A stretch of 64,000 nt of DNA from an uncultured Pseudomonadota bacterium. Its GTDB lineage: Bacteria > Pseudomonadota > Gammaproteobacteria > Burkholderiales > JALYOK01. The first letter of the stretch is position 1. Every line of letters starts with the position of its first letter. This document shows positions 11,074 through 36,997 of the stretch, piece after piece. The notes below the pieces were generated by a model. That model was not told the origin of the DNA. It saw nothing but the letters and a program-made list of their open reading frames with translations, and did not search any database. Made by a program: the position numbers and the translations under genes. The stretch lies in assembly GCA_963714525.1 (NCBI GenBank), contig CAVQPB010000021.1, forward strand, positions 16,149-80,148. The letters are read 5' to 3'.

Positions 11074-12513
11074 TCAAAAGAAATAAATTAACTGCAAGCC
11101 TAGCAGATTGTTGGTCTTGGAATAACTGCCGTCTTTTGTGTTCAAGAATGTCCGCAAGCTCGAGCCGTCGAGGCGATACTCGGCGCGCACGGTGACGTTC
11201 TTGTCGAGCAAATAATTAAACGTGGCCGTGAGCGCGTAACGGTTCGCGCCTTTGTTTTCGTCGGTCAGCAATCCCGTGAACGTATCGACTTCGGGGCCAA
11301 AACCGCTGAAGGGATCGTTCAGTACCGTAACCGCTCCGGCCGGATCGTCGAATTCATCGACGATTCCGTCACCATTCGTGTCGACCTGAACGAACGTTTC
11401 GCGGAACACATTACCCGGCATGCCGCCGCCGTTCTTGCTGTTTTTGATGTAATCGGCGCGCAGCACGCCTTCGGTGCGCGGCGAGAACTTGTAGGCCGCC
11501 AACCCTGACACGCCTATCCATTCGGCGTTCTGGCCGTTGGTCGCTGACTTATCCCACTTACCGTAGTCGATCTGGCCGGCGAAACTCCAATCGCCTTTGT
11601 TGTGATAAAAATCCGCTTGCACATTGCTTAGGTTATTGCCGAACAACTTGCCGCGATAGAACGTTCCGCCCACGCCCGCGTAATCGTTCAACGCGTAGTC
11701 CAAGCGGCCGTGCGCGGCGGTCGAGCGGTCGGAATAATTGCGCGCCAAGACGGCCGGATTGCCGATCATGATCTTGCCGCTGAGATTCCCGTCGGGCGTG
11801 AACTCCAAGCCTGCCCCGGTCATGTAGGTGAACTCGGCATAGTCGTAGAGCAAGTTATAGGTGATGTTCTTGCGCAACGTTGCCGCCTGGTATTCGTAGC
11901 CCTGCCAAGAGCCGACCTGCCCGGCGAAGAGCTTGATGCTTGGCTTGATCGGATAAGAGAAAATCGCTTGGTTGATGATGTTATTGTTGGCGTCGTCGTA
12001 GCCCTTTTTCGGCATGATTTCGATAATGCCTTTGGCGCCGCTCTCGAATTCCTTTTCGAAGCGCAAAAAGATGGAACCGAAAAACGAATTATCGTAACCA
12101 TAAACGTTGTCGCCGTTTTCGTCCGACGAGCCGCCGAGATTATTTAGAAACACGAAACTATTGGTGCGCCGGCGCTGGTTATAAATGTATGTCGGGTCTG
12201 CATAACCGGAAATCTTAATGCCGAGGAAACCGCTTTCTTCTTCTGTAGTTTCCATCTGGTCGATTTTAAGCTTGACCTTATTCACCTCGGTGACGGTTTC
12301 GTCCAAGCGTTCGTTGGCAGCCGGCGCCGCAGCCGCATCGGCGGGTTGCGCCGCGACGGGCGCCGCGTTGATTTTGTCTTCCAACGCTTTGACCTTGGCT
12401 TTCAGCTCCTGCAATTCCTTCAGCAGCTCGGCGTTATCGACTTGAGCGAACGTCGCGCAAGGCAAAGCCAGCGCCATCGCAGCGACTAATGTTTTGATTT
12501 TCCATTTCTTCAT
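11074..12513 (-). CDS. outer-membrane beta-barrel porin (DUF3138-like) with N-terminal coiled coil
   Basis: Signal peptide MKKWKIKTLVAAMALALPCATFA, coiled coil ELLKELQELKAKVKALEDKI, alternating beta-strand pattern and C-terminal LIYFF. The maximal ORF extends to 12567. Confidence 0.65.
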   Translation of the reverse strand: MKKWKIKTLVAAMALALPCATFAQVDNAELLKELQELKAKVKALEDKINAAPVAAQPADAAAAPAANERLDETVTEVNKVKLKIDQMETTEEESGFLGIKISGYADPTYIYNQRRRTNSFVFLNNLGGSSDENGDNVYGYDNSFFGSIFLRFEKEFESGAKGIIEIMPKKGYDDANNNIINQAIFSYPIKPSIKLFAGQVGSWQGYEYQAATLRKNITYNLLYDYAEFTYMTGAGLEFTPDGNLSGKIMIGNPAVLARNYSDRSTAAHGRLDYALNDYAGVGGTFYRGKLFGNNLSNVQADFYHNKGDWSFAGQIDYGKWDKSATNGQNAEWIGVSGLAAYKFSPRTEGVLRADYIKNSKNGGGMPGNVFRETFVQVDTNGDGIVDEFDDPAGAVTVLNDPFSGFGPEVDTFTGLLTDENKGANRYALTATFNYLLDKNVTVRAEYRLDGSSLRTFLNTKDGSYSKTNNLLGLQLIYFF

Positions 12514-25362: not shown

Positions 25363-25719
25363 CTACGCAGCCGCACGCAGCGGTGCGCGAATGATAATTT
25401 CGTCATAAGGGGCCATGAGCTTATTCGCATCGTCACGCGTGATCAACCCACGTTCTTCGAGCTCGGCAACGTCCGTATGTACTCGTTTGTAGTCGCGTTC
25501 TAGTGCGAGCGCTAAGCTTCGAATCGACAAACCCGGGTGTTCGGCCACAAAGCGCAATAGCTCGATGCGCTTCTCCGAGAGCAAGGAAGCGAGCTCGGCC
25601 ATCGAATCGAAACCGAGAATTGGTTCGATCGCTCCGCCGCGCGCTGCGGTATTGGCAATCTTTTTGAACTTGCGCAAAGCCTTCGCGGGAGAAAAAACTT
25701 CGGCGGTGATTCTTTTCAT
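25363..25719 (-). CDS. winged-HTH DNA-binding protein, putative antitoxin (TumA-like)
   Basis: ATG at 25719. LLSEKRIELLRFVAEHPGLSIRSLALALERDYKRVHTDVAELEERGLI is a MarR/ArsR-type wHTH. It sits 35 nt downstream of the putative toxin gene. Confidence 0.6.
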   Translation of the reverse strand: MKRITAEVFSPAKALRKFKKIANTAARGGAIEPILGFDSMAELASLLSEKRIELLRFVAEHPGLSIRSLALALERDYKRVHTDVAELEERGLITRDDANKLMAPYDEIIIRAPLRAAA

Positions 25720-25754
25720 GAAATTAGCCTTTCCGTGTAGTTCGCTCGGTCCGA

Positions 25755-26060
25755 CTATTTGCCCCAATCCCATCCACGTCGAGCGCACTCTTGTTGAAAC
25801 TCATCGAGCAGCGCATCAACCGTCGTGAACTCGTAGGGCTCTTCGACATTTTCGAGATGGCGATGCGCGGCCTTTCCGGTATGCGTGTCATAGAGAACCA
25901 GACACTCGTCCGCTCGGCCGAAATACAATCGGAAATGAAGGCCGTGTGGTCGATGATTGTCCGGGCGTGGTATTCGATAAATCTGCATCTCCACGATCAA
26001 GGCGCCCTGGCGCGCTTTATAGGAAAAGAGCTGCTCGGCCTTCGACATATGGCGTATCAT
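25755..26060 (-). CDS. DUF6516/TumE-like putative toxin
   Basis: About 100 aa. IYRIPRPDNHRPHGLHFRLYFGRADECLVLYDTHTGKAAHRHLENVEEPYEF resembles the TumE-family pattern. This is from memory and was not searched. Confidence 0.5.
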   Translation of the reverse strand: MIRHMSKAEQLFSYKARQGALIVEMQIYRIPRPDNHRPHGLHFRLYFGRADECLVLYDTHTGKAAHRHLENVEEPYEFTTVDALLDEFQQECARRGWDWGK

Positions 26061-26250
26061 GCCATAGTTGGGCTAGTACATCAAGCCTACCTGGACGGTC
26101 AATGATAATTGCGCCGATCCCTCACATTTATCGGCTCAAACTCCCAACCGGCAATGCTGTGAGGGTTACTGTTGCGCTATTGAATTATTTTGACGTTCCG
26201 CTAAGAACCGCGCCCCACTTGCCTCGTGGCGAAGCAAGCCCTGTGAAGTT

Positions 26251-26585
26251 GTCAATACCGGGCTGATTCTGCAAGAACTGCTGCAAGGGTTTTTCGGTCC
26301 TCGGGCACGCAAGGAGATCATCAAGCGATATAGTGCTCTGCCTGTCTTGCCCCTGATCGGAAGGACTACATTGATTCTGTGGAGCTTCGCAACCAATGTT
26401 GTCGTGCCCGCGTACAGATCGCGACCACCGACGCATTAATTTTACGACTCTGCATAAGCCATAAACTGGTGCTGCTGACGACCGCTCAAGACTTTGCGCA
26501 TGTGGCGCCGAATTGCCGTTGCAAATGTGCAACGATTAACCTAAGCGAACGTACGATCGCACTTACGATAGCCGAATTCATATGA
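26251..26585 (+). pseudogene. decayed PIN-domain (VapC-like) toxin gene, N-terminally truncated and frameshifted
   Basis: One frame reads LILQELLQGFFGPRARKEIIKRYSALPVLPL. A second frame continues ...VQIATTDALILRLCISHKLVLLTTAQDFAHVA, which is the PIN C-terminal motif D-x-x-I-A...L-x-T-x-x-x-D-F. No intact ORF spans both. Confidence 0.4.
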
Positions 26586-26607
26586 CTTGCGGAATCGGCC
26601 ACCAGTT

Positions 26608-26629
26608 GACATCGCATTGTGCGGCGCAA
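26608..26629 (+). repeat. 22-nt direct repeat, left copy (GACATCGCATTGTGCGGCGCAA)
   Basis: 20/22 identical and in the same orientation as 33519-33540. Together they bracket the CHASE2/CHAT segment. Confidence 0.5.
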
Positions 26630-27440
26630 GAGAGCAGTTTCGGGGTGGAGCCGCTATTGACAACGAAACGAATAATTTTCTCGAGTGGTCTCGGCTCAGC
26701 AAGCAAAAATCGGGGCACCGCCATTTGCGAAGAGTCGCTACCGGGCAACGCATTTTGCTGAGCTTCAGCCATCAACGAAATCGCACGCGACGCTTATGGG
26801 CAATTTGACAACATGTGTAGTTGGCGACAGATTGCCTCGCAGTTCCCTCGAAAACGCGTGCGAGCATCTGATCTCGCCTTGACATAGTTTTCCAGTTTGA
26901 GGAACTCGTGAATTCGAACTCGCGTTCCTCGTTGATCGTTGATACGGCGAATTTAACTATGTATTCCATGGATGGTCCCCGCGATAGAACCGGGAACTGT
27001 GTATTCGACGTATCACGCCCGAACGCGCCGCGTGCCGCGAAAGTGGGTCTGGTTTACCGGTAAAGCGTGAAGCAGCTGATGCCAATCGGATGGCGAACCT
27101 GGATGAATTCACCCGCTAGCGGTCATGGTAACGCCTCGTCACGCAGCTAGAGCAATGACACCAATTTAGTGGGCCTTGCTCCCAAGAACCACTCGGTGTT
27201 CTTTTGTGTCAAAATTAACAAAACCCTTCTTGTCAATTTGCGATGCATGGGGAGCTACAGATCCTGGAGGAGAGGTAGGCGTTGTTTGAAGAAGATGACG
27301 TTATGTGTAGAAAGCCCACTGTGCAAGCGACGGTGCACCTGACATCACCGTCGTCAGGCTGCCGGACGTACAGATCGTCTCGCATGCAAAGCGTTCGAGT
27401 TTCGCGGCGGGATTGAAGCGCGCGTCACACAGGATAATGC

Positions 27441-29057
27441 GTGCGGACTAAGACTCGAACTGAATCACCACAGTCGTGGTTGAAGAATGCACTGTCGTCT
27501 TGGATCACGGGGCTAGTGTTTGGTTTGATTGTCGCCGTGGTTTTAGTTTTCGTGACGGTCACGAATCTCTCTCGTATAGAAGACCGCGGAACTGATCTGG
27601 GAAATGTACTATTGGTGAAATTGAGGGAAGCTGCGTTTAAAGTCACTCTGGACTCTGAGCTTCCAAGAAAAGCAGAGATGGAGATCGGCGCAAAAAAGCA
27701 GAGCGAGGCCGATCTAGTTCAGGGCTATGTCTTTATAGACATTGATCCCGGCGGTATTCGCTCGGCACAGCATCTGGTCAAGACGGACATCGACATAGCC
27801 TCCACAACGGCAGGGGCAAGTGCAAGTGAGGACGCTTGCGCCGCCTTGGTATCTGCACTTGGTACCAAATACCGCTTACCACCCGCAAGATCGGATGGCC
27901 AAAGCGGCAACGTTGAACTGAACTGCAGTCAGCATCGTTCACCTAATCGTTACTTGCTTGCTGAGATTGTTTCTGAGCTCACGCAACGTAAGCCAAGGCT
28001 CATAGTCCTGGATTTCGTTCTATACGATGACCCAGGGATTTTCTCAGAGCAAGAAAACAAGGCGCTTAGAGGTGCGCTTGAGCAATCCAAAGTTCCTGTA
28101 TTTTTTGTTGCGCCGTATTTGTATCAGCGGAGCGAAGGCGATATTCATTGGTTGACTCGCGATTCCGTCGGCCTTTTTCTGCCTCATAAGCGCTCGGCCC
28201 ACGTGCATGCGCTCCCGCATTTCCCCGTGCCTGGTGAGCCAGTGCGCGCTTTCCCAGAGTGCTATCGAGTAACACCGGGACCAGGCGAAGGCGGGACGAA
28301 GGCGATTTCAAGCCTACCTCATGCCGTAGCTACAACAGTGCGAACTGGCGAAGTGGCTCTCGGGAGTGTCTGCCCAGACTTCCCTCAACGAACACGTGGC
28401 AACGCGAAGATCGTCACGAACGAGAGAATTATCTATACATTGCCCGGTAGCATCGAACATGTCGACGGCAAATCTGAGACTGATTTCGCGCTAGCGGCCA
28501 AATACAATCGCCTCTACGTGCGCTGCCTCGCGGAGAATCTCTGGAAATCAGAAGCGCTTTGCTCCCAAGAGCAAACGTTTCACGGGAAAGTCGTCGTGCT
28601 CGGAGTCTCGAATCCGACGCGAAAGGATATTCTCCAGACGCCGTTAGGACAAATGCCGGGGGCTTTGGTAACGCTAAATGCGATTAGAAGCTACGTTCTG
28701 TACCCAAACCTTGAGGAGAGAAGCATAGCGCTAAAGTTAGTTGAGAAGACGTCAGTTACTCTTGCTTGTTCGCTCGTATGGCTAGGGTACTGGCTTCTCT
28801 ACTACCGCCGCGTTGCGATGAGCAAGAGTCGCGGAATAGCAGCCTGGTGCACGACAATGATCAGTTTCACGGTTTGCGGCGTAGCCGTTTGCATGCTGGC
28901 GGTTTGGCTTAGCTTACAGCTGCATTCGCCGCCCAAATTGGACATACTGCTTCCCATTCTCGCCATCGGGCTTGAAGTCTACGGGGAGGGCGCAAGATGG
29001 GTAATAAATCACACCCATGAGTTCGTGGACGGGATCCTTCGAAAGGTGTTCAAATGA
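27441..29057 (+). CDS. CHASE2 domain-containing membrane protein without output domain
   Basis: GTG start 6 nt after AGGA. There is one N-terminal TM helix and a hydrophilic region of about 395 aa. That region carries CHASE2-like motifs (YVFIDIDPGG, PRLIVLDFVLYDD, GKVVVLGVSNPTRKDILQTPLGQMPGALVTLNAI). Three C-terminal TM helices follow, with only 24 residues after them. Confidence 0.8.
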   Translation: MRTKTRTESPQSWLKNALSSWITGLVFGLIVAVVLVFVTVTNLSRIEDRGTDLGNVLLVKLREAAFKVTLDSELPRKAEMEIGAKKQSEADLVQGYVFIDIDPGGIRSAQHLVKTDIDIASTTAGASASEDACAALVSALGTKYRLPPARSDGQSGNVELNCSQHRSPNRYLLAEIVSELTQRKPRLIVLDFVLYDDPGIFSEQENKALRGALEQSKVPVFFVAPYLYQRSEGDIHWLTRDSVGLFLPHKRSAHVHALPHFPVPGEPVRAFPECYRVTPGPGEGGTKAISSLPHAVATTVRTGEVALGSVCPDFPQRTRGNAKIVTNERIIYTLPGSIEHVDGKSETDFALAAKYNRLYVRCLAENLWKSEALCSQEQTFHGKVVVLGVSNPTRKDILQTPLGQMPGALVTLNAIRSYVLYPNLEERSIALKLVEKTSVTLACSLVWLGYWLLYYRRVAMSKSRGIAAWCTTMISFTVCGVAVCMLAVWLSLQLHSPPKLDILLPILAIGLEVYGEGARWVINHTHEFVDGILRKVFK

Positions 29058-30019
29058 TCCGCAGCATACTTAGCTTTCTGCACTTGGTATGTGTTTTAAC
29101 AGTTATGTCGCTGACTACACCGAGTCGCGCAGACACCGATTCACCCCAATGCGAGAGAAATCCCTTGAGCGTTCGATACTCGATCGAGCGAATTCTTCCG
29201 CCAAAGGGCAAAGTTATTATTCGTGCGATCAAAGGAGGCAATGAACGGATCACCGGCATAGGTGGGTGCATCGGCCCTGGCGAAACATTGATTTTGCCGG
29301 ACGATGTGGCATTGGTGGATGTTTTCGATGGCAGCAACGTCCTGCAGTGCAGTCGCGGCAATTGCCGGCTGGAGGCCAAGGATAGCTTCGGTGAAGCTGT
29401 CGCCGGTGCATTACGGTTTATAGCTCGCACGTACGCAGCATTGAGTCGTCCACCTACCCAGGATTTGCCCAAGGTTCCAGCCATTCGGGGCGAGGAGGAG
29501 GCAGTCGAGGCCAACGTACTAAGGCCTGTTGTCGCCCTTTCAGTGCCGGTCGCCCAAAAGATATCGCTTGCCACCGAGAATCTCGTCGTTGGGTGGCGGG
29601 ACGGCAAAGGGCCCGTTTGGGAATGTCGCGCTACCCGTATATCATCGATGCGGCGTTCAGCAGGATCCACTGCGTTGGGCACTGTAACAAGCGACTCGGA
29701 TCAATGGTGCGTGCTGAAGCTTGTCGGTATTGATGCGGGCGATACTATAGAACTCGAACTCTCCGATGGGTCGGGATCGACCGTGGTGTGGAAAATCACT
29801 GTCGTATCCTCGTCTGATGTACCTCTGCCGCCGTGGGCGGAGACCGGCCCCGTACTCCAGGGTCCGCCAGACGAAACAGCATGGGCGCTATGGTTGCTGC
29901 AGTCAAAACCCGAGTGGCGGCTTTACGTTTTGGCGGAGCTCTATCGATTGCAGCAACATCAGTGGCTTGCTGGCCACGTGCTACGGCGCATCCTGAGCGA
30001 GAGCGAATTAGCGCGATAA
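29054..30019 (+). CDS. secreted hypothetical protein (321 aa), translationally coupled to the CHASE2 gene
   Basis: The ATG overlaps the upstream stop (ATGA at 29054-29057). The signal peptide is MIRSILSFLHLVCVLTVMSLTTPSRA/DT. The mature part has six Cys. The N-terminal segment KGKVIIRAIKGG...PGETLILPDDVALVDVFDGSNVL is weakly FecR-like. No confident family was recognised. Confidence 0.7.
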   Translation: MIRSILSFLHLVCVLTVMSLTTPSRADTDSPQCERNPLSVRYSIERILPPKGKVIIRAIKGGNERITGIGGCIGPGETLILPDDVALVDVFDGSNVLQCSRGNCRLEAKDSFGEAVAGALRFIARTYAALSRPPTQDLPKVPAIRGEEEAVEANVLRPVVALSVPVAQKISLATENLVVGWRDGKGPVWECRATRISSMRRSAGSTALGTVTSDSDQWCVLKLVGIDAGDTIELELSDGSGSTVVWKITVVSSSDVPLPPWAETGPVLQGPPDETAWALWLLQSKPEWRLYVLAELYRLQQHQWLAGHVLRRILSESELAR

Positions 30020-30053: not shown

Positions 30054-33000
30054 TTACCGCCCATATAGAACGAACGGTGCCCAGAAGTAAGGGTGCCGAT
30101 CCACCGGATCTGATGAGTCCAAGAATTCTCTCTTGGTTTCAGCAAGAGCCTGAGCTACCGCGTGGCGTGGATTTGTTCTTTCAAGCTCTGGCAGCCGTGC
30201 GAGAAAAACTGTAACAAAGCGCGCAGACCGCTTGTCGTCCACTGGCCAGAGTGTCGCTACCGTGTTGGCATTGCCCGCTACGTAGAGCGCATAAGCAAGT
30301 CCGATCAATCCTTCTCCGCCAACGGTGCGACCGCGAGCTGTATCGCAGGCCGAGAGAATTGTCAGGTAGCTTCTAAGGGTCAAGTTCGCCCACTCGCCGG
30401 TCGTCACATAACCGTCCCTTGCTGGAGTGTCATCTTCAAATCTCAATACAAGCCCTGACCTTGAGGGCGCACACGGATCGAAATAGCCGTGAGCAGAGAA
30501 CAGCACGTGACGGTAGTTGGCGAGGTCACCATTACTCGAGATCGTCCGCAGCTTTGTTTCGGTAGCGTCATTTTGTGTTATCGCCTCGTGGTCTTGCAGT
30601 TTGAACAACGCCTTAGCGTCCGAAATCTCTTTGGCCGAATAATTCAGATTCTTCCATGGCTCTTTGGTCTTCGCGCATTCATTCGTGCGATACGTGGGAG
30701 GAGTACCTTTGTAGTTAGGATCCCCGAAGGCCAATAGGGGCCGCAGCGCTTGGGCTGATTCGCCCTCAGCTTGCTGATTCTGGATGCGCTGTTGTACGAG
30801 TTTTAGGACTGAGAACGAGTGAATCAGACTTAGATCGAAGCTGGCTATGAGCGGCTGGCCCTCGACCTTTAGAACATCAAACGCCAGCAACCCAAGCGGG
30901 CCGTCAGGCGAGATGATGATTCGCCTCTTGCCGACGAGCTTGGCTTTCAGTGGTTCGATTAACTTGTTGCTCAGAAAGACTATAAGCGGGTCGCCCGCAT
31001 TCTTACCTTCGGGGGTACTCGATTCAAGAATCCGAGCCCCTGGGGGCACGCAATCCCCTCCGACTGGACTGCCACCCGCATCGCTGAACGAACCGATACT
31101 CTTCATGGGCCTCAGGTTGCCCCACGTGTCATTTGTTCGAACCCGCGAAAGAGCGCGTTGTGGCTTAAGGTCCTCTTGGGGACAAGGCTTTCGTTCGGGA
31201 ACCGAGCGCCAGCGGCGTACGCCGTTCTCCTCCCAGGAGGCCAACGGTGAAGCTTTCCCTGCTGGTTGGCCAATCCACTTGCGCAGAGCTTCAACGGAGT
31301 CGCCCAGTCCTGGTATCGAACCCAGATCGAACCAGCCCACGTTGCTCTCGTTATCTAGAGTCAACGCAAAGACTCGTTGCCCGTCAACGACCATGTAGCT
31401 AACGAAGAGTTCGTCGGGCGAAAGCAGTTGAGGGGCATCGGGAACCGCCGCAAATTCAATCTCAGTTACTTTGGCGAAACGCGGATGCTCTTTCTTCAGT
31501 TTCGCACGCAAATCGCTTTCCTCCCGATCGAGACGCTTGAGGATATTGCGCGCTTCTTGATCTTCGGACTTCGCAAGGCGAACCTCTATCGCGGTGATTT
31601 GGTCGTTGAGATCCTGGAGACGTTTGGCGTCCGTATCGGGTATGATTCCAGAACGTAGAGTTTCGGATTCGGCCATTTGCTCTAAAAGAGTGCGTGCCTT
31701 TGTCATCTCTAAGATCTCGAAGGCCTCATTAGGTTGACCAGCCTGGTTGAGCGCAAAGGCAAAGGATTGGTATTGGGACATGTAGCGCTCAAATTGTTGT
31801 CGCTGCATGCTGCGGGATTCGGATCCAGCATGGACTCGAACCTGCTCAACGACATCAACGAACCGCGCCCACATTTTTAAAGCGTCAGAGTGTTTTCCAG
31901 ATAAGTACATTGTCTCTGCAAGTGCAGCTAGATGTTTCGCCGAGTTTGGATGGCGCCCGGGAAAATGCTGAGAGTGCACCTTCAATATGTCTTCAAACAA
32001 CGGAAGCGCCTCAGAGATCATGTTCTGTTCGCGCAGCGCGATTGCGTAGCTAAACGCTACGCTTAGGTGGTGCTTATATAACTCTGGGCGACTCGGGCCA
32101 TAAACCTCGTATGCTCTCCTAAAAGATGCCAATGCCTCTTTATCCTTGCCTTCGATTCGATAGAATTCTCCCAGAATGGAATCTAGCGAGGATTGGTTTA
32201 TTGCATTCAACTCTTGTTCTACTGCCGCATTGGGTGCAGACGCTGCCGCATCCTTCTCCAAAGCTTTCCACGCAACAATAAGCCTATCCACAATGGGCCG
32301 TGCCTTGTCTATTTGCTCCGTAGCGAGGAGTATGGCCAGATAGTAAAGCAACGCCGTAGGATCCTCTCTAGCAGACTGAATTTCATTGATAGCCCCTTCC
32401 TCACCAACGTTATTTCCTTCCCCAGATTCAGGATTCGGCACGACTAGCGCTTCGTCGGGAACCGGCCAATGTTCTTGCATGAACCGTCTTGCATCCTCTA
32501 TCTGCTTAAACTGCAGCAAGGCGTTCAGGTACAGGATGCGGGCCGTATACTGCAACATTGCGAAGTTCTGATCCATCTTTGACGTCGACCAAAATTCTTC
32601 GAACAGCCGTAGGCCCTTGGTCGATCCCCCGACCGTTACTAATTCATTGGCGTAAAGCAATAGCGCCTGCATCGTATTGACATGATCGGGCCCGCAGCTT
32701 TTCTTAACCTCACCGTAGTAACCCGCCACCTTATCCAGATAAGCCGACAACTCGCCATTTGACCGCAGCTTTTCCAACTCTTTTTGAACTTCGAGTGCTG
32801 CGGTACTTGCAGCGCGGAGTTCTTGGGCCTGTTTCTTTAGCTGTTCCGATCGCTGTTCGAGTTGTCGGAGAAGTTCGGCCGAGTCGCCCGGGGTCGTCTG
32901 AGGTATGGGTGCTTGGCGCACGTGCGGTTCTTGCAGGCCCGAAGCGCATGTCAGAGGCACGGGCAGGCTCTGGGATCGAGCGAGCACGGAACACGTTAGG

Positions 33001-33110
33001 ATCAGTCCGCAGCAAAACAGATAGGTTAGTTGCCGAGTCGGCTGGCAGCGCCACAGTCTAAGACTATGGCGGAAAGCCTTAATCACCGCAGTCCAAGAAT
33101 TACGCCCCAT
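30054..33110 (-). CDS. TPR repeat- and CHAT domain-containing caspase-like protease with N-terminal signal/anchor (1018 aa)
   Basis: ATG at 33110 is preceded by AAGGAGG. The N-terminus is ...RLWRCQPTRQLTYLFCCGLILTCSVLA/RS, followed by a coiled coil and TPR-like repeats. The C-terminal CHAT domain has His (FSAHGYF, codon 30489-30491) and Cys (LSACDTA, codon 30345-30347). Confidence 0.9.
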   Translation of the reverse strand: MGRNSWTAVIKAFRHSLRLWRCQPTRQLTYLFCCGLILTCSVLARSQSLPVPLTCASGLQEPHVRQAPIPQTTPGDSAELLRQLEQRSEQLKKQAQELRAASTAALEVQKELEKLRSNGELSAYLDKVAGYYGEVKKSCGPDHVNTMQALLLYANELVTVGGSTKGLRLFEEFWSTSKMDQNFAMLQYTARILYLNALLQFKQIEDARRFMQEHWPVPDEALVVPNPESGEGNNVGEEGAINEIQSAREDPTALLYYLAILLATEQIDKARPIVDRLIVAWKALEKDAAASAPNAAVEQELNAINQSSLDSILGEFYRIEGKDKEALASFRRAYEVYGPSRPELYKHHLSVAFSYAIALREQNMISEALPLFEDILKVHSQHFPGRHPNSAKHLAALAETMYLSGKHSDALKMWARFVDVVEQVRVHAGSESRSMQRQQFERYMSQYQSFAFALNQAGQPNEAFEILEMTKARTLLEQMAESETLRSGIIPDTDAKRLQDLNDQITAIEVRLAKSEDQEARNILKRLDREESDLRAKLKKEHPRFAKVTEIEFAAVPDAPQLLSPDELFVSYMVVDGQRVFALTLDNESNVGWFDLGSIPGLGDSVEALRKWIGQPAGKASPLASWEENGVRRWRSVPERKPCPQEDLKPQRALSRVRTNDTWGNLRPMKSIGSFSDAGGSPVGGDCVPPGARILESSTPEGKNAGDPLIVFLSNKLIEPLKAKLVGKRRIIISPDGPLGLLAFDVLKVEGQPLIASFDLSLIHSFSVLKLVQQRIQNQQAEGESAQALRPLLAFGDPNYKGTPPTYRTNECAKTKEPWKNLNYSAKEISDAKALFKLQDHEAITQNDATETKLRTISSNGDLANYRHVLFSAHGYFDPCAPSRSGLVLRFEDDTPARDGYVTTGEWANLTLRSYLTILSACDTARGRTVGGEGLIGLAYALYVAGNANTVATLWPVDDKRSARFVTVFLARLPELERTNPRHAVAQALAETKREFLDSSDPVDRHPYFWAPFVLYGR

Positions 33111-33199: not shown

Positions 33200-33518
33200 A
33201 GCCTGCCTTGCCTTGAGGGCCACTTGCCACATACCAGGGTCTGCGAACAACAGTTGGTCATGAACAGTCTAGCGGGAGGGAGCCGATCTTTGCGCTTCAT
33301 AATGCCAGGTCTGTGTTAGTCGGTGTTTTTGGCCATACTTTCTCGCTGCACGACGGCTTTCAGCGGTGCAGTGTTTGAAAGCCACTCGTACGGACAGGGT
33401 CGAAAATCGGGCAGCATGTTTTTTTACACTAGTTCGCGTTTCAGGAAGACGTGAAGTGTGCGCTTTGCGATTGTGAGCCGAAGCGCCGCGACCTTACGTC
33501 AGCTATGTGAATGGTGCC

Positions 33519-33619: not shown

Positions 33620-34081
33620 CTAGCGAATGCTAAACCCTAGATCGCGCAGTTCGGCGGCGAGAAGTTTTCGTTTGCTGGGAATATCGGCAGGGCGAGATTT
33701 GCGGTAGCGCTTTGCTTCTTCTGCGCTGTAGGGAACAAAATTCTCTGGCAACGATGCGCCGGCAAACCGGGTAAGGATATAGTTGGTCACGTCGGCCGCG
33801 CGGGTATCGGGCATGCCGGCGCTGAGCAGGCCGGGAATCTGCATGAGATACGCGCGGCCCGCTTCGGTGCGCAGAAAATAGCCGACCTGATCTTTTAGCG
33901 CTGGGATGCCTTTATGTTCGAGGCCGCGTCCATCTTGCGCGTGGCATCCGGAGCAATGCAGTATGTAGTCGATGCGGCCTTGATTGGAATACGGTTGGTC
34001 GCCGGCGATAGCAATACTGCTTACGCAAACGAGAATTGCCGAGAACTTCATGCAGAATCCCCGGCGGCTTAATTTTTTCAT
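33620..34081 (-). CDS. monohaem c-type cytochrome (probable electron acceptor of the amine dehydrogenase)
   Basis: Single CSGCH haem-binding motif, signal peptide and distal Met context YLMQIPG. The start may be the internal Met at 34051. Confidence 0.8.
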   Translation of the reverse strand: MKKLSRRGFCMKFSAILVCVSSIAIAGDQPYSNQGRIDYILHCSGCHAQDGRGLEHKGIPALKDQVGYFLRTEAGRAYLMQIPGLLSAGMPDTRAADVTNYILTRFAGASLPENFVPYSAEEAKRYRKSRPADIPSKRKLLAAELRDLGFSIR

Positions 34082-34138
34082 GGGTTGGTGTTGCTTCAGG
34101 TAGATTCCGCGCGCATGCGGAATCTACCTACCACCGAC

Positions 34139-34663
34139 TTAGCCCGCAGCAGTGCCGACGATGGCCGACACGGTGCAGTGATACATGGTTTGAGTATTGG
34201 CCATGCACCAGTTGATATCGTTGTGCACACCCATGCGGTAGCCGGGGCGCTCCCGTTCGTTGAAGTTACAAAGGCAGCGTCCGCACGCGACCTTGCCGCA
34301 GCAATCGTTGTAGCTCACCAGATAGGCTTTGCCGTCCTTGGGATTTTGGCAGGTGCCGACCCAGGTGACTTTCGAAACTTCCGAGCCCGGCGGACATTGA
34401 CTGGTTGTACCGCCGCAGCAGTTACAAATAAAACCATCCAGCGCGCAGTTACGCCAATAATCGCAGGCCGCGGGATCGTCGCTGGTCGTCATCGCCGCCT
34501 GGGCTGTGCCGCCGGAACGGTCGAATGGCAGCATGGGCAACGCGGCGCCGGCGACCATCCATTTGCCGATGCGGGCGAGTGCGCTGCGCCGGCTGGTGAG
34601 TTGCGCCGTTTCGCGCACCCGGCGTTCGGCGAATTTGTCCATCCAGTCCTGAAGGTATTTCAT
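34139..34663 (-). CDS. mauA: TTQ-dependent amine dehydrogenase light (small) subunit
   Basis: Long Tat-like leader (SRRSALARIGKW). The Cys-rich core CDYWRNCALDGFICNCCGG...VTWVGTC...NDCCGK...INWCMA...YHCT aligns by eye to the methylamine dehydrogenase beta subunit, including both TTQ Trp contexts. Confidence 0.9.
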   Translation of the reverse strand: MKYLQDWMDKFAERRVRETAQLTSRRSALARIGKWMVAGAALPMLPFDRSGGTAQAAMTTSDDPAACDYWRNCALDGFICNCCGGTTSQCPPGSEVSKVTWVGTCQNPKDGKAYLVSYNDCCGKVACGRCLCNFNERERPGYRMGVHNDINWCMANTQTMYHCTVSAIVGTAAG

Positions 34664-34689
34664 GGTATTCCTCCGTCCCTCGATTTCGA

Positions 34690-35301
34690 TTAAGCGGCTT
34701 TACTCGAATAACTTGAATTACTGCCGGTCAAAAAATCCTGTACCGAACCTACGCCGAGTTCCTTGGCGTTAAACAAACTTTCCAACTGCTCGCGATTGTT
34801 GATCATGCCCTTGGCGCGGATCGCGCCCGTCTCGTCGATCAGCACGGCGTAGGGCAAACGGCTGACGCGGTAGGTCATGCCCAGATCCGACGATAACACA
34901 TAGGGAAACTCCATCAGCTTGGCGTCGCGATAAAAGGCCAGATGTTGCGTCGCCTCACCGTCGCTGGCCAGGATCACTTGCAGCCATTCGCGTTCGGCTT
35001 GAGAAGCGGATTTCAGAATGGGCAATAGTTTTTTACACACGGGACACGTGGGCGAGAGGAAGAACAACAACTGACTCGACGCACGCTGTCCGCCGATGGC
35101 GATGACCGTGCCGTTCAGCGCTGGCAATTCAAACTTCGGCGCAGCCTCGCCGAGCTTGGGGCCGGCGTCCGTGATGAGCGCCCCCATGGGTGCGACCCTC
35201 TCGTACAGGATGCCTACCTGCCGCGCCAGCGCCCATAACGCAACGATGACGCCGAGCAGCAACACCCATAAGATCGCGTTCGAAATCATTAGGCTGGTCA
35301 C
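34690..35301 (-). CDS. mauD: methylamine dehydrogenase accessory protein MauD (thioredoxin-like)
   Basis: N-terminal TM helix and a thioredoxin fold with a CPVC motif (LSPTCPVCKKLLP). It overlaps mauE by 4 nt. Confidence 0.85.
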   Translation of the reverse strand: MTSLMISNAILWVLLLGVIVALWALARQVGILYERVAPMGALITDAGPKLGEAAPKFELPALNGTVIAIGGQRASSQLLFFLSPTCPVCKKLLPILKSASQAEREWLQVILASDGEATQHLAFYRDAKLMEFPYVLSSDLGMTYRVSRLPYAVLIDETGAIRAKGMINNREQLESLFNAKELGVGSVQDFLTGSNSSYSSKAA

Positions 35302-35864
35302 GACGCAACTCCCGAGGGTTTGCCCTTAAGTTGAGCGATGCGGCCGAACTGGCGCAGCAACTCGTCAAACGTTAAATAGCTTCCGTAGAGCGCGAGCACG
35401 CCGACAATCAACGTAACGGCATCTAGCCATTCATAGGAACGGCCTACGCTGGGTGCGGACATGGCTAGGGCAATACACGCTAACAAGCCATTGCGCACTA
35501 CCAAGCCCCAAGACAACAAATGCACGTCTCCGCCGCAACCGCAATCGATTTGATGCCGACCGCGCACTAGGTTGATGGCGATAGCGATGCCGTAGACGGT
35601 CATTAATGCAGCAAAAACAACTAATCCTAGGGGACGCGTTATCGGGACAAGAACGCCGACCCCGATTGCTGCTTCAACATAGGGCAAGCTCCGCGCGATC
35701 GGCATTACGCCGGCACTTGGCAAAAGTTGGTAGGCATCGAGTGCGCCGGCGAACACGTCTGGCTCGGAGAATTTGTGCCAAGCAGCGGAAAACAAAATCA
35801 ACGCGACGCATCCCGCGACGGCGCTAGCGGCGACAGGGTCCGTCAGGAACGGATACCACTGCAT
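35298..35864 (-). CDS. mauE: methylamine utilisation membrane protein MauE
   Basis: 188-aa polytopic membrane protein in the canonical position between the heavy-chain gene and mauD. Its ATG overlaps the mauB stop by 1 nt. Confidence 0.8.
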   Translation of the reverse strand: MQWYPFLTDPVAASAVAGCVALILFSAAWHKFSEPDVFAGALDAYQLLPSAGVMPIARSLPYVEAAIGVGVLVPITRPLGLVVFAALMTVYGIAIAINLVRGRHQIDCGCGGDVHLLSWGLVVRNGLLACIALAMSAPSVGRSYEWLDAVTLIVGVLALYGSYLTFDELLRQFGRIAQLKGKPSGVAS

Positions 35865-36997
35865 TATTCCGCCTCAAGCTGACCGGGAAACTCGCCAACT
35901 TGGGTCAAGCGGACTTTGGCTTTTGGTGAAATCTTATCCCAAACGACTACGGATGCTTTCATCGGGTCGATCGCGTACAGCCGTTTGCCGTCGGCGGATG
36001 GCTCCAACGCAATCGCCGAATTGCCGGGCAGGCGAGCGACCCGTTTCTTCGTTTGAGTGTCGAACGCCCAAATCTCGTTCGCAGGATTTTTATGACTACC
36101 TTCCACGCCGCCTGTATGCATCGTGACGTAAAGCCGATTGGTGCCCGGATGCACGGCGAGAGGCTGGTAGCCGCCCGGCCGCCAGGCTTTCTTCTGGTCG
36201 GCTTTCGATAGTAGCGGCCAAGTCCCTTCCAAGACCGCCGTGTCGCCGCCAACATTGACAGTCGCGATATTGCCTTTGAAGCTGACAAAGTGATAACGAT
36301 CGCCGTCTTGTTCGCCTTGCATAAACCAGGCATCTTCATCGGGATCGAAAAACTTACCGCTCGACGTGCGCGATGCTTCCTTGCCGCTGTCGTCTATCGT
36401 CACAGTGCTGACGTTGCCTTCGCCGCACAGGGAAGCAAAACGTTTTGAGTTGGACTGGGCAGGATAGATTGCCCAACAACCCGGCATGGAAATATCGCCG
36501 ACGTCTTTCTTCGCCTGCATATCGACCACCGTGACCGATGTTGCGGGAGTGGAGTTCTGTATGAACAGCCAGCGGCCGTCGGCGGATAAACGGATCAAGC
36601 CTTCGTAATTCAGCGCCATGGCGCGCTTGTCCGAAATAGGAATCTCGTACTTAAACGACAAATTATCCGCATCCCAGACTTCGACCACATCGACGCGATC
36701 GCCGCGCTGCCCGCGGGACAAATAGCCGGTAGCGACTATGATTTCGCGCTTGTTATTGCTCAGGATGAATTGGCCCGTGAAACCGGTGCCTATCATCCCA
36801 AGGTAATTGCCGCTTTCGGCGTCGACGACGTGAAGTTTGCCGTCGGATATATGATTAATCGCTATGTCGGAAATATAAATCCGATGCTTAGCGGTGATGG
36901 CGGGAAGCGTGCCGACCGTATCGTTGGGAAGGTCCGCCCAGACCGCCGTGGAGAGGGCTAACAAGCTGGTTACGACGATACCGCAATTGACATTCAT
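35864..36997 (-). CDS. mauB: TTQ-dependent amine dehydrogenase heavy (large) subunit, beta-propeller
   Basis: 377 aa with a signal peptide. RIYISD..., GDRVDVVEVWDADNL, AWRPGGYQPLAVH and RLYVTMH resemble the MADH/AADH alpha subunit. Confidence 0.9.
   Translation of the reverse strand: MNVNCGIVVTSLLALSTAVWADLPNDTVGTLPAITAKHRIYISDIAINHISDGKLHVVDAESGNYLGMIGTGFTGQFILSNNKREIIVATGYLSRGQRGDRVDVVEVWDADNLSFKYEIPISDKRAMALNYEGLIRLSADGRWLFIQNSTPATSVTVVDMQAKKDVGDISMPGCWAIYPAQSNSKRFASLCGEGNVSTVTIDDSGKEASRTSSGKFFDPDEDAWFMQGEQDGDRYHFVSFKGNIATVNVGGDTAVLEGTWPLLSKADQKKAWRPGGYQPLAVHPGTNRLYVTMHTGGVEGSHKNPANEIWAFDTQTKKRVARLPGNSAIALEPSADGKRLYAIDPMKASVVVWDKISPKAKVRLTQVGEFPGQLEAE

Follow-up and report, generated by a model that had tools for sequence, protein, structure and literature searches.

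A stand-alone CHASE2 gene, its conserved neighbors and a candidate module for regulated envelope proteolysis

The CHASE2 domain was first described in 2003. It is known as the extracytoplasmic part of cyclases, kinases and cyclic di-GMP (c-di-GMP) enzymes, and its ligands and signaling mechanism are unknown (PMC5192318). We analyzed a stretch of 64,000 nucleotides from an uncultured Pseudomonadota bacterium (assembly GCA_963714525.1, contig CAVQPB010000021.1, positions 16,149 to 80,148), referred to below as the window. On its forward strand, a gene at 27441–29057 encodes a CHASE2 protein of 538 amino acids that carries no cytoplasmic output domain, as judged from the open reading frame (ORF), Pfam matches, relatives and a structure model. 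This raises the question of whether the gene is what remains of a longer kinase or cyclase gene and, if it is complete, how a sensor that ends at the membrane could pass on a signal. We conclude that the gene is intact and belongs, as an ordinary member, to a rare stand-alone CHASE2 family. It is found in a conserved set of three genes, together with a gene for a predicted secreted protein of an uncharacterized family (ORF2) and a gene for a caspase-fold protease.

Domain, topology and natural end of the CHASE2 protein

The ORF starts with a GTG codon, preceded by a Shine-Dalgarno-like AGGA 6 nt upstream (27431–27434, forward strand), and its product ends in ...LEVYGEGARWVINHTHEFVDGILRKVFK. 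Residues 167–435 match the Pfam family CHASE2 (PF05226) with E=3.3e-11 and 43.7 bits, well above the curated cutoff of 26.3, and a scan of the protein against NCBIfam gave nothing significant. Kyte-Doolittle hydropathy revealed a strong N-terminal transmembrane (TM) segment at residues ~20–42 and further segments at ~436–455, 464–493 and 497–515. An AlphaFold2 model based on a 70-sequence family alignment (mean predicted local distance difference test, pLDDT, of 86; predicted template modeling score, pTM, of 0.88) places long helices at residues 12–41, 429–460, 466–494 and 503–537 around an alpha/beta domain.

From these data, four segments can be delimited on the forward strand. TM helix 1 covers residues ~20–42 (27498–27566; hydropathy peak of 2.89, model helix 12–41) and follows a lysine/arginine-rich cytoplasmic N-terminus. 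The periplasmic CHASE2 domain extends over residues ~43–428 (27567–28724), as indicated by Pfam, a 30-sequence alignment termed A1, and the model. Hydropathy, alignments and the model agree on three C-terminal TM helices at residues ~429–523 (28725–29009), and a short cytoplasmic tail of residues ~524–538, together with the TGA stop codon (29010–29057), forms the natural end of the family according to alignment A1. Depending on the helix end chosen, ~15–24 residues are left past the last TM helix. The first-pass annotation of this DNA had placed the end of the frame just past the third C-terminal TM helix, in agreement with the ORF, the hydropathy profile and the model.

Segments rich in lysine and arginine occur at the N-terminus, in the loop between TM2 and TM3 (YYRRVAMSKSRG) and in the tail, and the central domain contains four invariant and two nearly invariant cysteines among the 30 aligned sequences. 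Both the distribution of the basic segments and the location of the cysteines fit the modeled topology, in which one TM helix, the CHASE2 domain and three TM helices would follow each other with the N-terminus inside, CHASE2 in the periplasm and the C-terminus inside.

Sequence conservation is concentrated in a few positions. C133, C162, C362, C374, D100, D191, R394, D396, T400, G403, G407 and N413 are invariant in alignment A1 (n=30). The protein also contains the C-terminal core motif G-x-S...R-x-D-x-H-x-T-P-x-G...G...N-A, which we take to be a family-wide CHASE2 signature; its residues G388, S390, R394, D396, H398, T400, P401, G403, G407, N413 and A414 are invariant or nearly invariant in alignments A1 and A6. 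The last TM helix likewise keeps polar and acidic residues, within the sequence LEVYGE at residues ~511–516 (28971–28988): Y514 is invariant in a 9-sequence alignment (A2) and E516 nearly invariant across the family. These two residues may contribute to packing of the TM bundle or to signaling within the membrane. The periplasmic domain also contains variable insertions modeled with low confidence, in blocks at residues 71–90 and 111–120 (mean pLDDT ~52–58). A Foldseek search of the PDB with the model gave no match below E=0.1, and a profile search of PDB sequences with the protein gave nothing significant.

The family as such came into view only with an exhaustive HMMER search. Word-index homology searches with the CHASE2 protein, a profile of ORF2 and a 70-sequence CHASE2 profile returned one, five and one proteins, respectively, the first of them finding only the query protein itself, and tblastn against plasmids found no match. 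In comparison, a phmmer search of 1.84 billion cluster representatives recovered 181 relatives at E≤1e-3, 52 of them at E≤1e-30. Among the best 150 of these 181 relatives, 118 are 450–600 amino acids long, 28 are shorter, presumably because they are metagenomic fragments, and four are longer. The longer ones comprise a fusion of CHASE2 and ORF2, a tandem double CHASE2 protein, a repeat artefact and a protein with an extra TM insertion; inspection of the four sequences revealed no kinase or cyclase domain. The nearest relatives, with ~480–560 residues, align end to end, and the top matches span the query from residue ~10 to ~530. All 30 members of alignment A1 stop a few to ~25 residues past the C-terminus of the query, and CHASE2 was the sole Pfam match in each of the 70 family members scanned. 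The NCBI annotation of this stand-alone family, as in Pseudomonas sp. X10, goes no further than “CHASE2 domain-containing protein”.

The tandem protein (P0103, 1024 amino acids) joins two complete CHASE2 modules, both of which bring their own TM helices. A cytoplasmic output domain is again not evident in its sequence, making it another output-less CHASE2 architecture.

If the gene were a truncated pseudogene, it would derive from a canonical CHASE2 kinase or cyclase whose cytoplasmic output domain was cut off by a frameshift or by a premature stop codon at 29055–29057. Beyond the general expectation that an output domain follows CHASE2, nothing points in this direction, as none of the tools used gave a result in its favor. 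The length of most of the best 150 relatives, which also lack a known output domain, argues against it, and so does the position of the C-terminus, whose conservation throughout the family supports the position of the stop codon. The first-pass annotation had regarded alignable remnants of an output domain, downstream and in another frame, as the hallmark of a pseudogene. Pfam searches of the other two forward frames 3′ of 29057 detected no such remnants and no match to any signaling domain. Instead, the downstream DNA is occupied by a conserved gene of a different family, equipped with a ribosome-binding site and a signal peptide-like start of its own. Two other public contigs and a 415-kb contig at NCBI moreover contain a gene for the identical 538-residue protein, all of them possibly originating from the same sample. 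We are thus practically certain that the protein is full length, and a pseudogene appears hardly conceivable. The initial description of a CHASE2 sensor that lacks an output domain and is not a frameshifted piece of a longer protein has therefore held up.

ORF2 and the caspase-fold protease as conserved neighbors

The gene next to the CHASE2 gene, ORF2 (29054–30019, forward strand), encodes a protein of 321 amino acids that is predicted to be secreted. Its ATG start codon (29054–29056) and the TGA stop codon of the CHASE2 gene (29055–29057) share an ATGA overlap at 29054–29057, which suggests that both genes are translationally coupled, and its ribosome-binding site, AAGGTG at 29043–29048, lies within the 3′ end of the CHASE2 gene. 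A separate signal peptide had already been ascribed to this ORF on first inspection, and by hydropathy its N-terminus (MIRSILSFLHLVCVLTVMSLTTPSRA/D, residues ~1–26) indeed resembles one. ORF2 has no match in Pfam even at E≤10, none in NCBIfam or PADLOC, and a profile search of PDB sequences gave nothing significant. A beta-rich N-terminal domain, a proline-rich linker, a second beta domain and a tryptophan-rich helical C-terminus can be distinguished in a low-confidence AlphaFold2 model, which was built from five sequences and, with a pLDDT of 45, is unusable for a fold search.

We also considered ORF2 as a divergent FecR-domain protein and rejected this assignment at the level of sequences and profiles: Pfam gave no match to FecR (PF04773) at E≤10 in 11 members of the ORF2 family, and hhalign assigned a probability of 0.08 to the alignment of the ORF2 profile with FecR of E. 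coli. Within the linker, which is otherwise variable, residue R145 is kept in 15 of 16 ORF2 sequences and the dipeptide Arg-Gly in 13 of 16 (R145-G146, nucleotides 29486–29491). This conservation makes R145-G146 a candidate site for processing by a protease or for its docking.

Convergent to these two genes lies a gene for a TPR-CHAT caspase-fold protease (30054–33110, reverse strand). We assign it to the same module as the CHASE2 gene, a link that the first-pass annotation had not made. Public assemblies give a length of 1018 amino acids for its product, and the ORF remains open up to a GTG at 33230. The Pfam match to CHAT (PF12770) has E=1e-50 and 173 bits at a cutoff of 24. The protease domain (30057–30974) contains the catalytic motifs SAHG (His874) and LSACDT (Cys922; both in the 1018-residue numbering), and matches to TPR_12, TPR_14, TPR_19 and TPR_NPHP3 delimit a region of TPR repeats (31821–32225), a type of repeat domain that binds proteins. 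Near the N-terminus, a lysine/arginine-rich stretch is followed by the hydrophobic segment LTYLFCCGLILTCSVLARS (32973–33029). From its hydropathy, we read this segment as a predicted signal peptide or signal anchor, and even a signal anchor would still let the catalytic domain face outwards.

To place these genes in a wider context, we assembled 18 related loci from pattern scans and from exact look-up of family representatives. They represent 13 lineages, between which identity of the CHASE2 protein does not exceed 52%. The pattern scans, run on collections of genomes and of metagenomes, contributed three and two loci, respectively, and the remaining context was gathered locus by locus. A profile of ORF2 homologs detected an ORF2-family gene directly 3′ of the CHASE2-only gene in all 13 lineages, and the coordinates of the two gene calls overlap at five loci (L006, L011, L015, L017 and L018). 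All 12 lineages with enough flanking DNA also have a neighboring gene for a caspase-fold protease; in the thirteenth (L010), the contig ends inside ORF2. The orientation of the protease gene varies between same-strand, convergent and divergent. Caspase-fold proteases are rare genes and the lineages are independent, so that this adjacency cannot be due to chance.

The protease itself comes in different forms. CHAT proteins with or without TPR repeats are encoded in the window and at L006 and L017, two loci whose arrangement is homologous to that of the window. Peptidase_C14 proteins take this place elsewhere, combined with pentapeptide repeats (L003/L004/L012, L009 and L013), with TPR repeats (L005), or with no repeat domain in the available sequence (L007/L008, L011, L014, L015 and L018, all cut by a contig end except L015). 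C14 and CHAT enzymes thus fill the same position, which argues for a functional requirement for a caspase-fold enzyme. The catalytic motifs, His-Gly and (D/S)AC at a distance of ~50–58 residues, are kept in 15 of 15 partner proteases. All complete N-termini of these proteases show a basic stretch followed by a hydrophobic stretch, in most cases with an Ala-X-Ala-like site. None of the 13 lineages has a kinase, cyclase, GGDEF or transporter gene as a conserved neighbor, and the other flanking genes, which encode toxin-antitoxin (TA) modules, an Mrr-like nuclease, major facilitator superfamily transporters, fatty-acid enzymes and metabolic enzymes, are not conserved either. Taken together, the CHASE2-only protein, ORF2 and the secreted caspase-fold protease very probably constitute one functional module.

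At one locus (L009, 2811–8279, reverse strand), a secreted C14-pentapeptide protein and a secreted CHAT protease are both encoded beside the CHASE2/ORF2 pair. This arrangement suggests that the module tolerates duplication or exchange of its proteases.

Two loci show CHASE2 and ORF2 in a single reading frame. At L014 (2237–4705), a protein of 822 amino acids (P0057) appears to be an in-frame CHASE2-ORF2 fusion, found on this single contig only, and the next gene encodes a secreted Peptidase_C14 protein. The fusion keeps a hydrophobic linker, GTFLLVLVVPARAQA, which as a putative fifth TM helix could return the ORF2 part to the periplasm. Such a fusion is consistent with the CHASE2 protein and ORF2 acting together. 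The second case is an 827-amino-acid ORF in a Pseudomonas metagenome-assembled genome (L003, JAVXRI010000081.1). Relative to the close relatives L004 and L012, this locus carries a 74-bp deletion at 11460–11475, through which the stop codon of the CHASE2 gene, the spacer between the genes and half of the signal peptide of ORF2 are lost. Because of this deletion, which probably represents an assembly artefact or a recent lesion, we discounted L003 as Rosetta-stone evidence.

Proposed regulated envelope proteolysis and alternative functions

How could such a module work? For each of the three proteins, the prediction places the functional domain on the periplasmic side, which makes proteolysis in the envelope the most likely mechanism. 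As the best overall explanation, we propose, with somewhat better than even confidence, that the three genes form a self-contained extracytoplasmic module for regulated envelope proteolysis. From sequence and gene context, we infer a physical interaction of the components, a direction of control, a substrate and a physiological role. In this scheme, the CHASE2 domain and ORF2 would gate the periplasmic protease by binding it, or would deliver a substrate to it, and the protease, encoded in trans, would be the “output” of the CHASE2 sensor. The response would consist of proteolysis in the envelope and would involve no cytoplasmic kinase or cyclase, phosphorylation or second messenger. These specifics of gating and cleavage are tentative, and we would rather bet against than on their exact form. 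As a speculative extension, the protease could cut ORF2 at the conserved Arg145-Gly146 in the proline-rich linker. Since a basic residue at P1 is favored by metacaspase-type C14 enzymes and by separase-like proteases, Arg145 is a plausible processing site. It had been proposed from the start that any signal must be passed on within the membrane or the periplasm. The gene context is in favor of this idea, since both conserved neighbors begin with signal peptide-like segments and cytoplasmic signaling genes are absent from the conserved neighborhood in the lineages compared.

The closest functional analog of the proposed logic is the LapD-LapG system of Pseudomonas fluorescens, whose inner-membrane receptor LapD governs the periplasmic cysteine protease LapG. 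In both cases, a periplasmic domain would gate a cysteine protease. The two systems have no homologous component, however: LapG is a transglutaminase-like enzyme and not a caspase-fold protease, and LapD receives its input on the cytoplasmic side, where c-di-GMP acts through degenerate GGDEF-EAL domains. The CHASE2 protein, in contrast, lacks a cytoplasmic domain, and any input to it must therefore come from outside.

Several points weigh against envelope proteolysis by such a module. The signal peptides were judged by hydropathy and charge and not by a trained predictor, and some of them could be signal anchors. The convergent orientation of the protease gene in the window precludes co-transcription with the CHASE2 gene. 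The gene context covers only 13 lineages, and the pattern scans yielded few loci. The poor model of ORF2 (pLDDT 45) does not establish its fold or a disorder of the linker. Finally, the analogy to the caspase-CHASE2 fusions described below is imperfect, since the caspase of these fusions is predicted to be on the opposite side of the membrane from the protease found here.

Other functions would be compatible with parts of the evidence. The CHASE2 protein could be an accessory co-sensor that uses its three C-terminal TM helices with Y514 and E516 to signal laterally in the membrane to an unlinked histidine kinase, cyclase or transporter, while ORF2 and the protease would only process the ligand or be unrelated. 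Conservation of the C-terminal TM bundle and of the polar residues in its last helix agrees with such a role, as does a tail too short to be an enzyme itself. A TM bundle is general to CHASE2 proteins, however, so that its conservation need not mean a separate partner, and the comparison of the 13 lineages yielded no conserved kinase, cyclase, GGDEF or transporter neighbor, whereas the ORF2 and protease genes are always present. We consider a co-sensor of this kind unlikely. The same grade applies to a role in envelope suicide, defense or competition, in which CHASE2 and ORF2 would detect an insult from outside or in the periplasm, such as a phage, a toxin or a neighboring cell, and release the protease to degrade envelope proteins, ending in programmed cell death or in kin discrimination. 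Bacterial conflict systems typically use caspase-fold proteases as effectors (PMC8195603). TA pairs near the module (TumE/HVO_A0114 in the window, BrnT/CopG at L007) and the Mrr-like nuclease at L006 would suit this role, as would the slightly lower G+C content of the window at 26–34 kb (0.52–0.55, compared with ~0.56–0.60 further out). Yet the known defense caspases and CHAT proteases are cytoplasmic, the TA adjacency is anecdotal, being seen at two to three loci, and other loci have metabolic neighbors. PADLOC returned weak matches of the CHAT protein to BovA (4.4e-8) and of the C14 protein to “caspase” (1.4e-7). These are domain-level matches only; the CHASE2 protein and ORF2 have none, and PADLOC-DB v2 gave no system-level match for the module.

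The linkage of the three genes would be explained equally if the CHASE2 protein were not a sensor but a substrate or an anchor of the protease, with its periplasmic domain clipped as in regulated intramembrane proteolysis and ORF2 acting as adaptor or inhibitor. The variable, low-confidence insertions of the periplasmic domain might be exposed to the protease. These insertions are not conserved, however, so that no conserved cleavage site is evident in the CHASE2 protein, whereas the ORF2 linker does carry a conserved arginine. Moreover, cleavage could not release a cytoplasmic domain, as there is none. A substrate role therefore appears quite improbable, even more so than the two roles discussed above. 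Envelope proteolysis by a self-contained module thus remains the explanation that we favor.

Canonical CHASE2 receptors, such as CyaD1, CyaD2 and CyaK of S. meliloti or BiofilmReg of Burkholderia, share the PF05226 domain and the order of one TM helix, CHASE2 domain and three TM helices (PMC5192318). In these receptors, CHASE2 is fused to an adenylate or guanylate cyclase, a histidine kinase, a GGDEF/EAL module or a Ser/Thr kinase, whereas the proteins of the family described here end ~20 residues past TM4 without any cytoplasmic output. The dependence on envelope partners would be a common feature: the Burkholderia CHASE2 kinase (the BiofilmReg histidine kinase) is encoded beside a periplasmic LysM/FecR protein (PMC5192318), and the CHASE2 cyclases of S. 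meliloti answer a protein signal via the outer-membrane protein NsrA (PMC13001267). The partner found here is not detectably a FecR-domain protein, and no response regulator or second-messenger enzyme is linked to it.

The CHAT protease of the window has the TPR-then-CHAT layout and the His/Cys dyad in common with the TPR-CHAT protein of type III-E CRISPR systems (Craspase). Other cytoplasmic CHAT and caspase effectors resemble it as well (PMC8195603). It differs from all of these by a signal peptide-like segment and a periplasmic sensor as partner, and there is no CRISPR or nucleotide-sensor context. An association of CHASE2 with caspases is not without precedent. A metacaspase-CHASE2 protein of Trichodesmium erythraeum and EACC2-caspase proteins with a C-terminal CHASE2 domain combine a caspase fold with a four-TM CHASE2 and likewise have no kinase or cyclase output (PMC3501461, PMC2853523, PMC8195603). 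The premise of the first-pass annotation that CHASE2 is the N-terminal module of kinases and cyclases was therefore too narrow. The caspase of the fusions is located N-terminal to TM1, with a predicted cytoplasmic position (PMC3501461), whereas the protease described here is encoded by a separate gene, has a signal peptide-like N-terminus of its own and is predicted to be on the periplasmic side, like CHASE2. In addition, ORF2 is a third, obligate component, and CHAT may replace C14. A full-text literature search, whose coverage was incomplete, found no description of a split triad of CHASE2, ORF2 and protease. The association of CHASE2 with caspases is thus already known, and its strict embedding in an extracytoplasmic triad with a secreted caspase-fold protease appears to be new.

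Surroundings of the module and implications

A TA-like pair with overlapping coding regions is located ~1.4 kb upstream of the CHASE2 gene on the reverse strand (25363–26060). It consists of a TumE-family toxin (25755–26060, reverse strand; Pfam E=1.1e-6) and an HVO_A0114/MarR-like winged helix-turn-helix protein (25363–25788, reverse strand; E=5e-23). Between this pair and the CHASE2 gene, ~1.3 kb of DNA (26100–27440) contain no convincing ORF, only short, unconserved ones of at most 115 codons, and the G+C content of the window is lowest at 26–28 kb (0.52). The region may represent an island junction or decayed sequence. Rfam gave no match on 20–38 kb, a tRNA scan found none in the window, and a promoter and terminator scan added nothing.

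Directly beyond the CHAT gene follows a methylamine dehydrogenase (mau) cluster on the reverse strand (33620–36997). It comprises genes for the heavy chain (35864–36997), MauE (35298–35864), a MauD-like thioredoxin-fold protein (34690–35301), the light chain (34139–34663) and a c-type cytochrome (33620–34081), all on the reverse strand. Based on this cluster, the host is probably a methylamine-utilizing proteobacterium.

For genome annotation, the results imply that stand-alone CHASE2 genes should not be flagged as truncated and that the ORF2 family merits a family model of its own. With a CHASE2 protein that lacks an enzyme and is linked to two predicted secreted proteins, the minimal module offers a simple system for the study of CHASE2 binding and signal transmission. 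It also places caspase-fold proteases that are catalytically intact, as judged by their motifs, in the periplasm together with a sensor, whereas work on bacterial caspases has centered on cytoplasmic roles in death and defense. A bolder version of this idea, to which we give little credence, is that the triad is a signaling or suicide device acting wholly outside the cytoplasm, an “extracellular caspase cascade”, in which a protein or envelope cue, sensed by the CHASE2 receptor and its dedicated partner, would activate the C14 or CHAT protease and lead to cleavage in the envelope, starting with Arg145 of ORF2. If this were true, the general role of CHASE2 domains would be to bind protein partners, and their ligands would not be small molecules. 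And if the protease is gated by CHASE2 and ORF2, the module would be a second example of receptor-controlled periplasmic proteolysis, unrelated to LapD-LapG.

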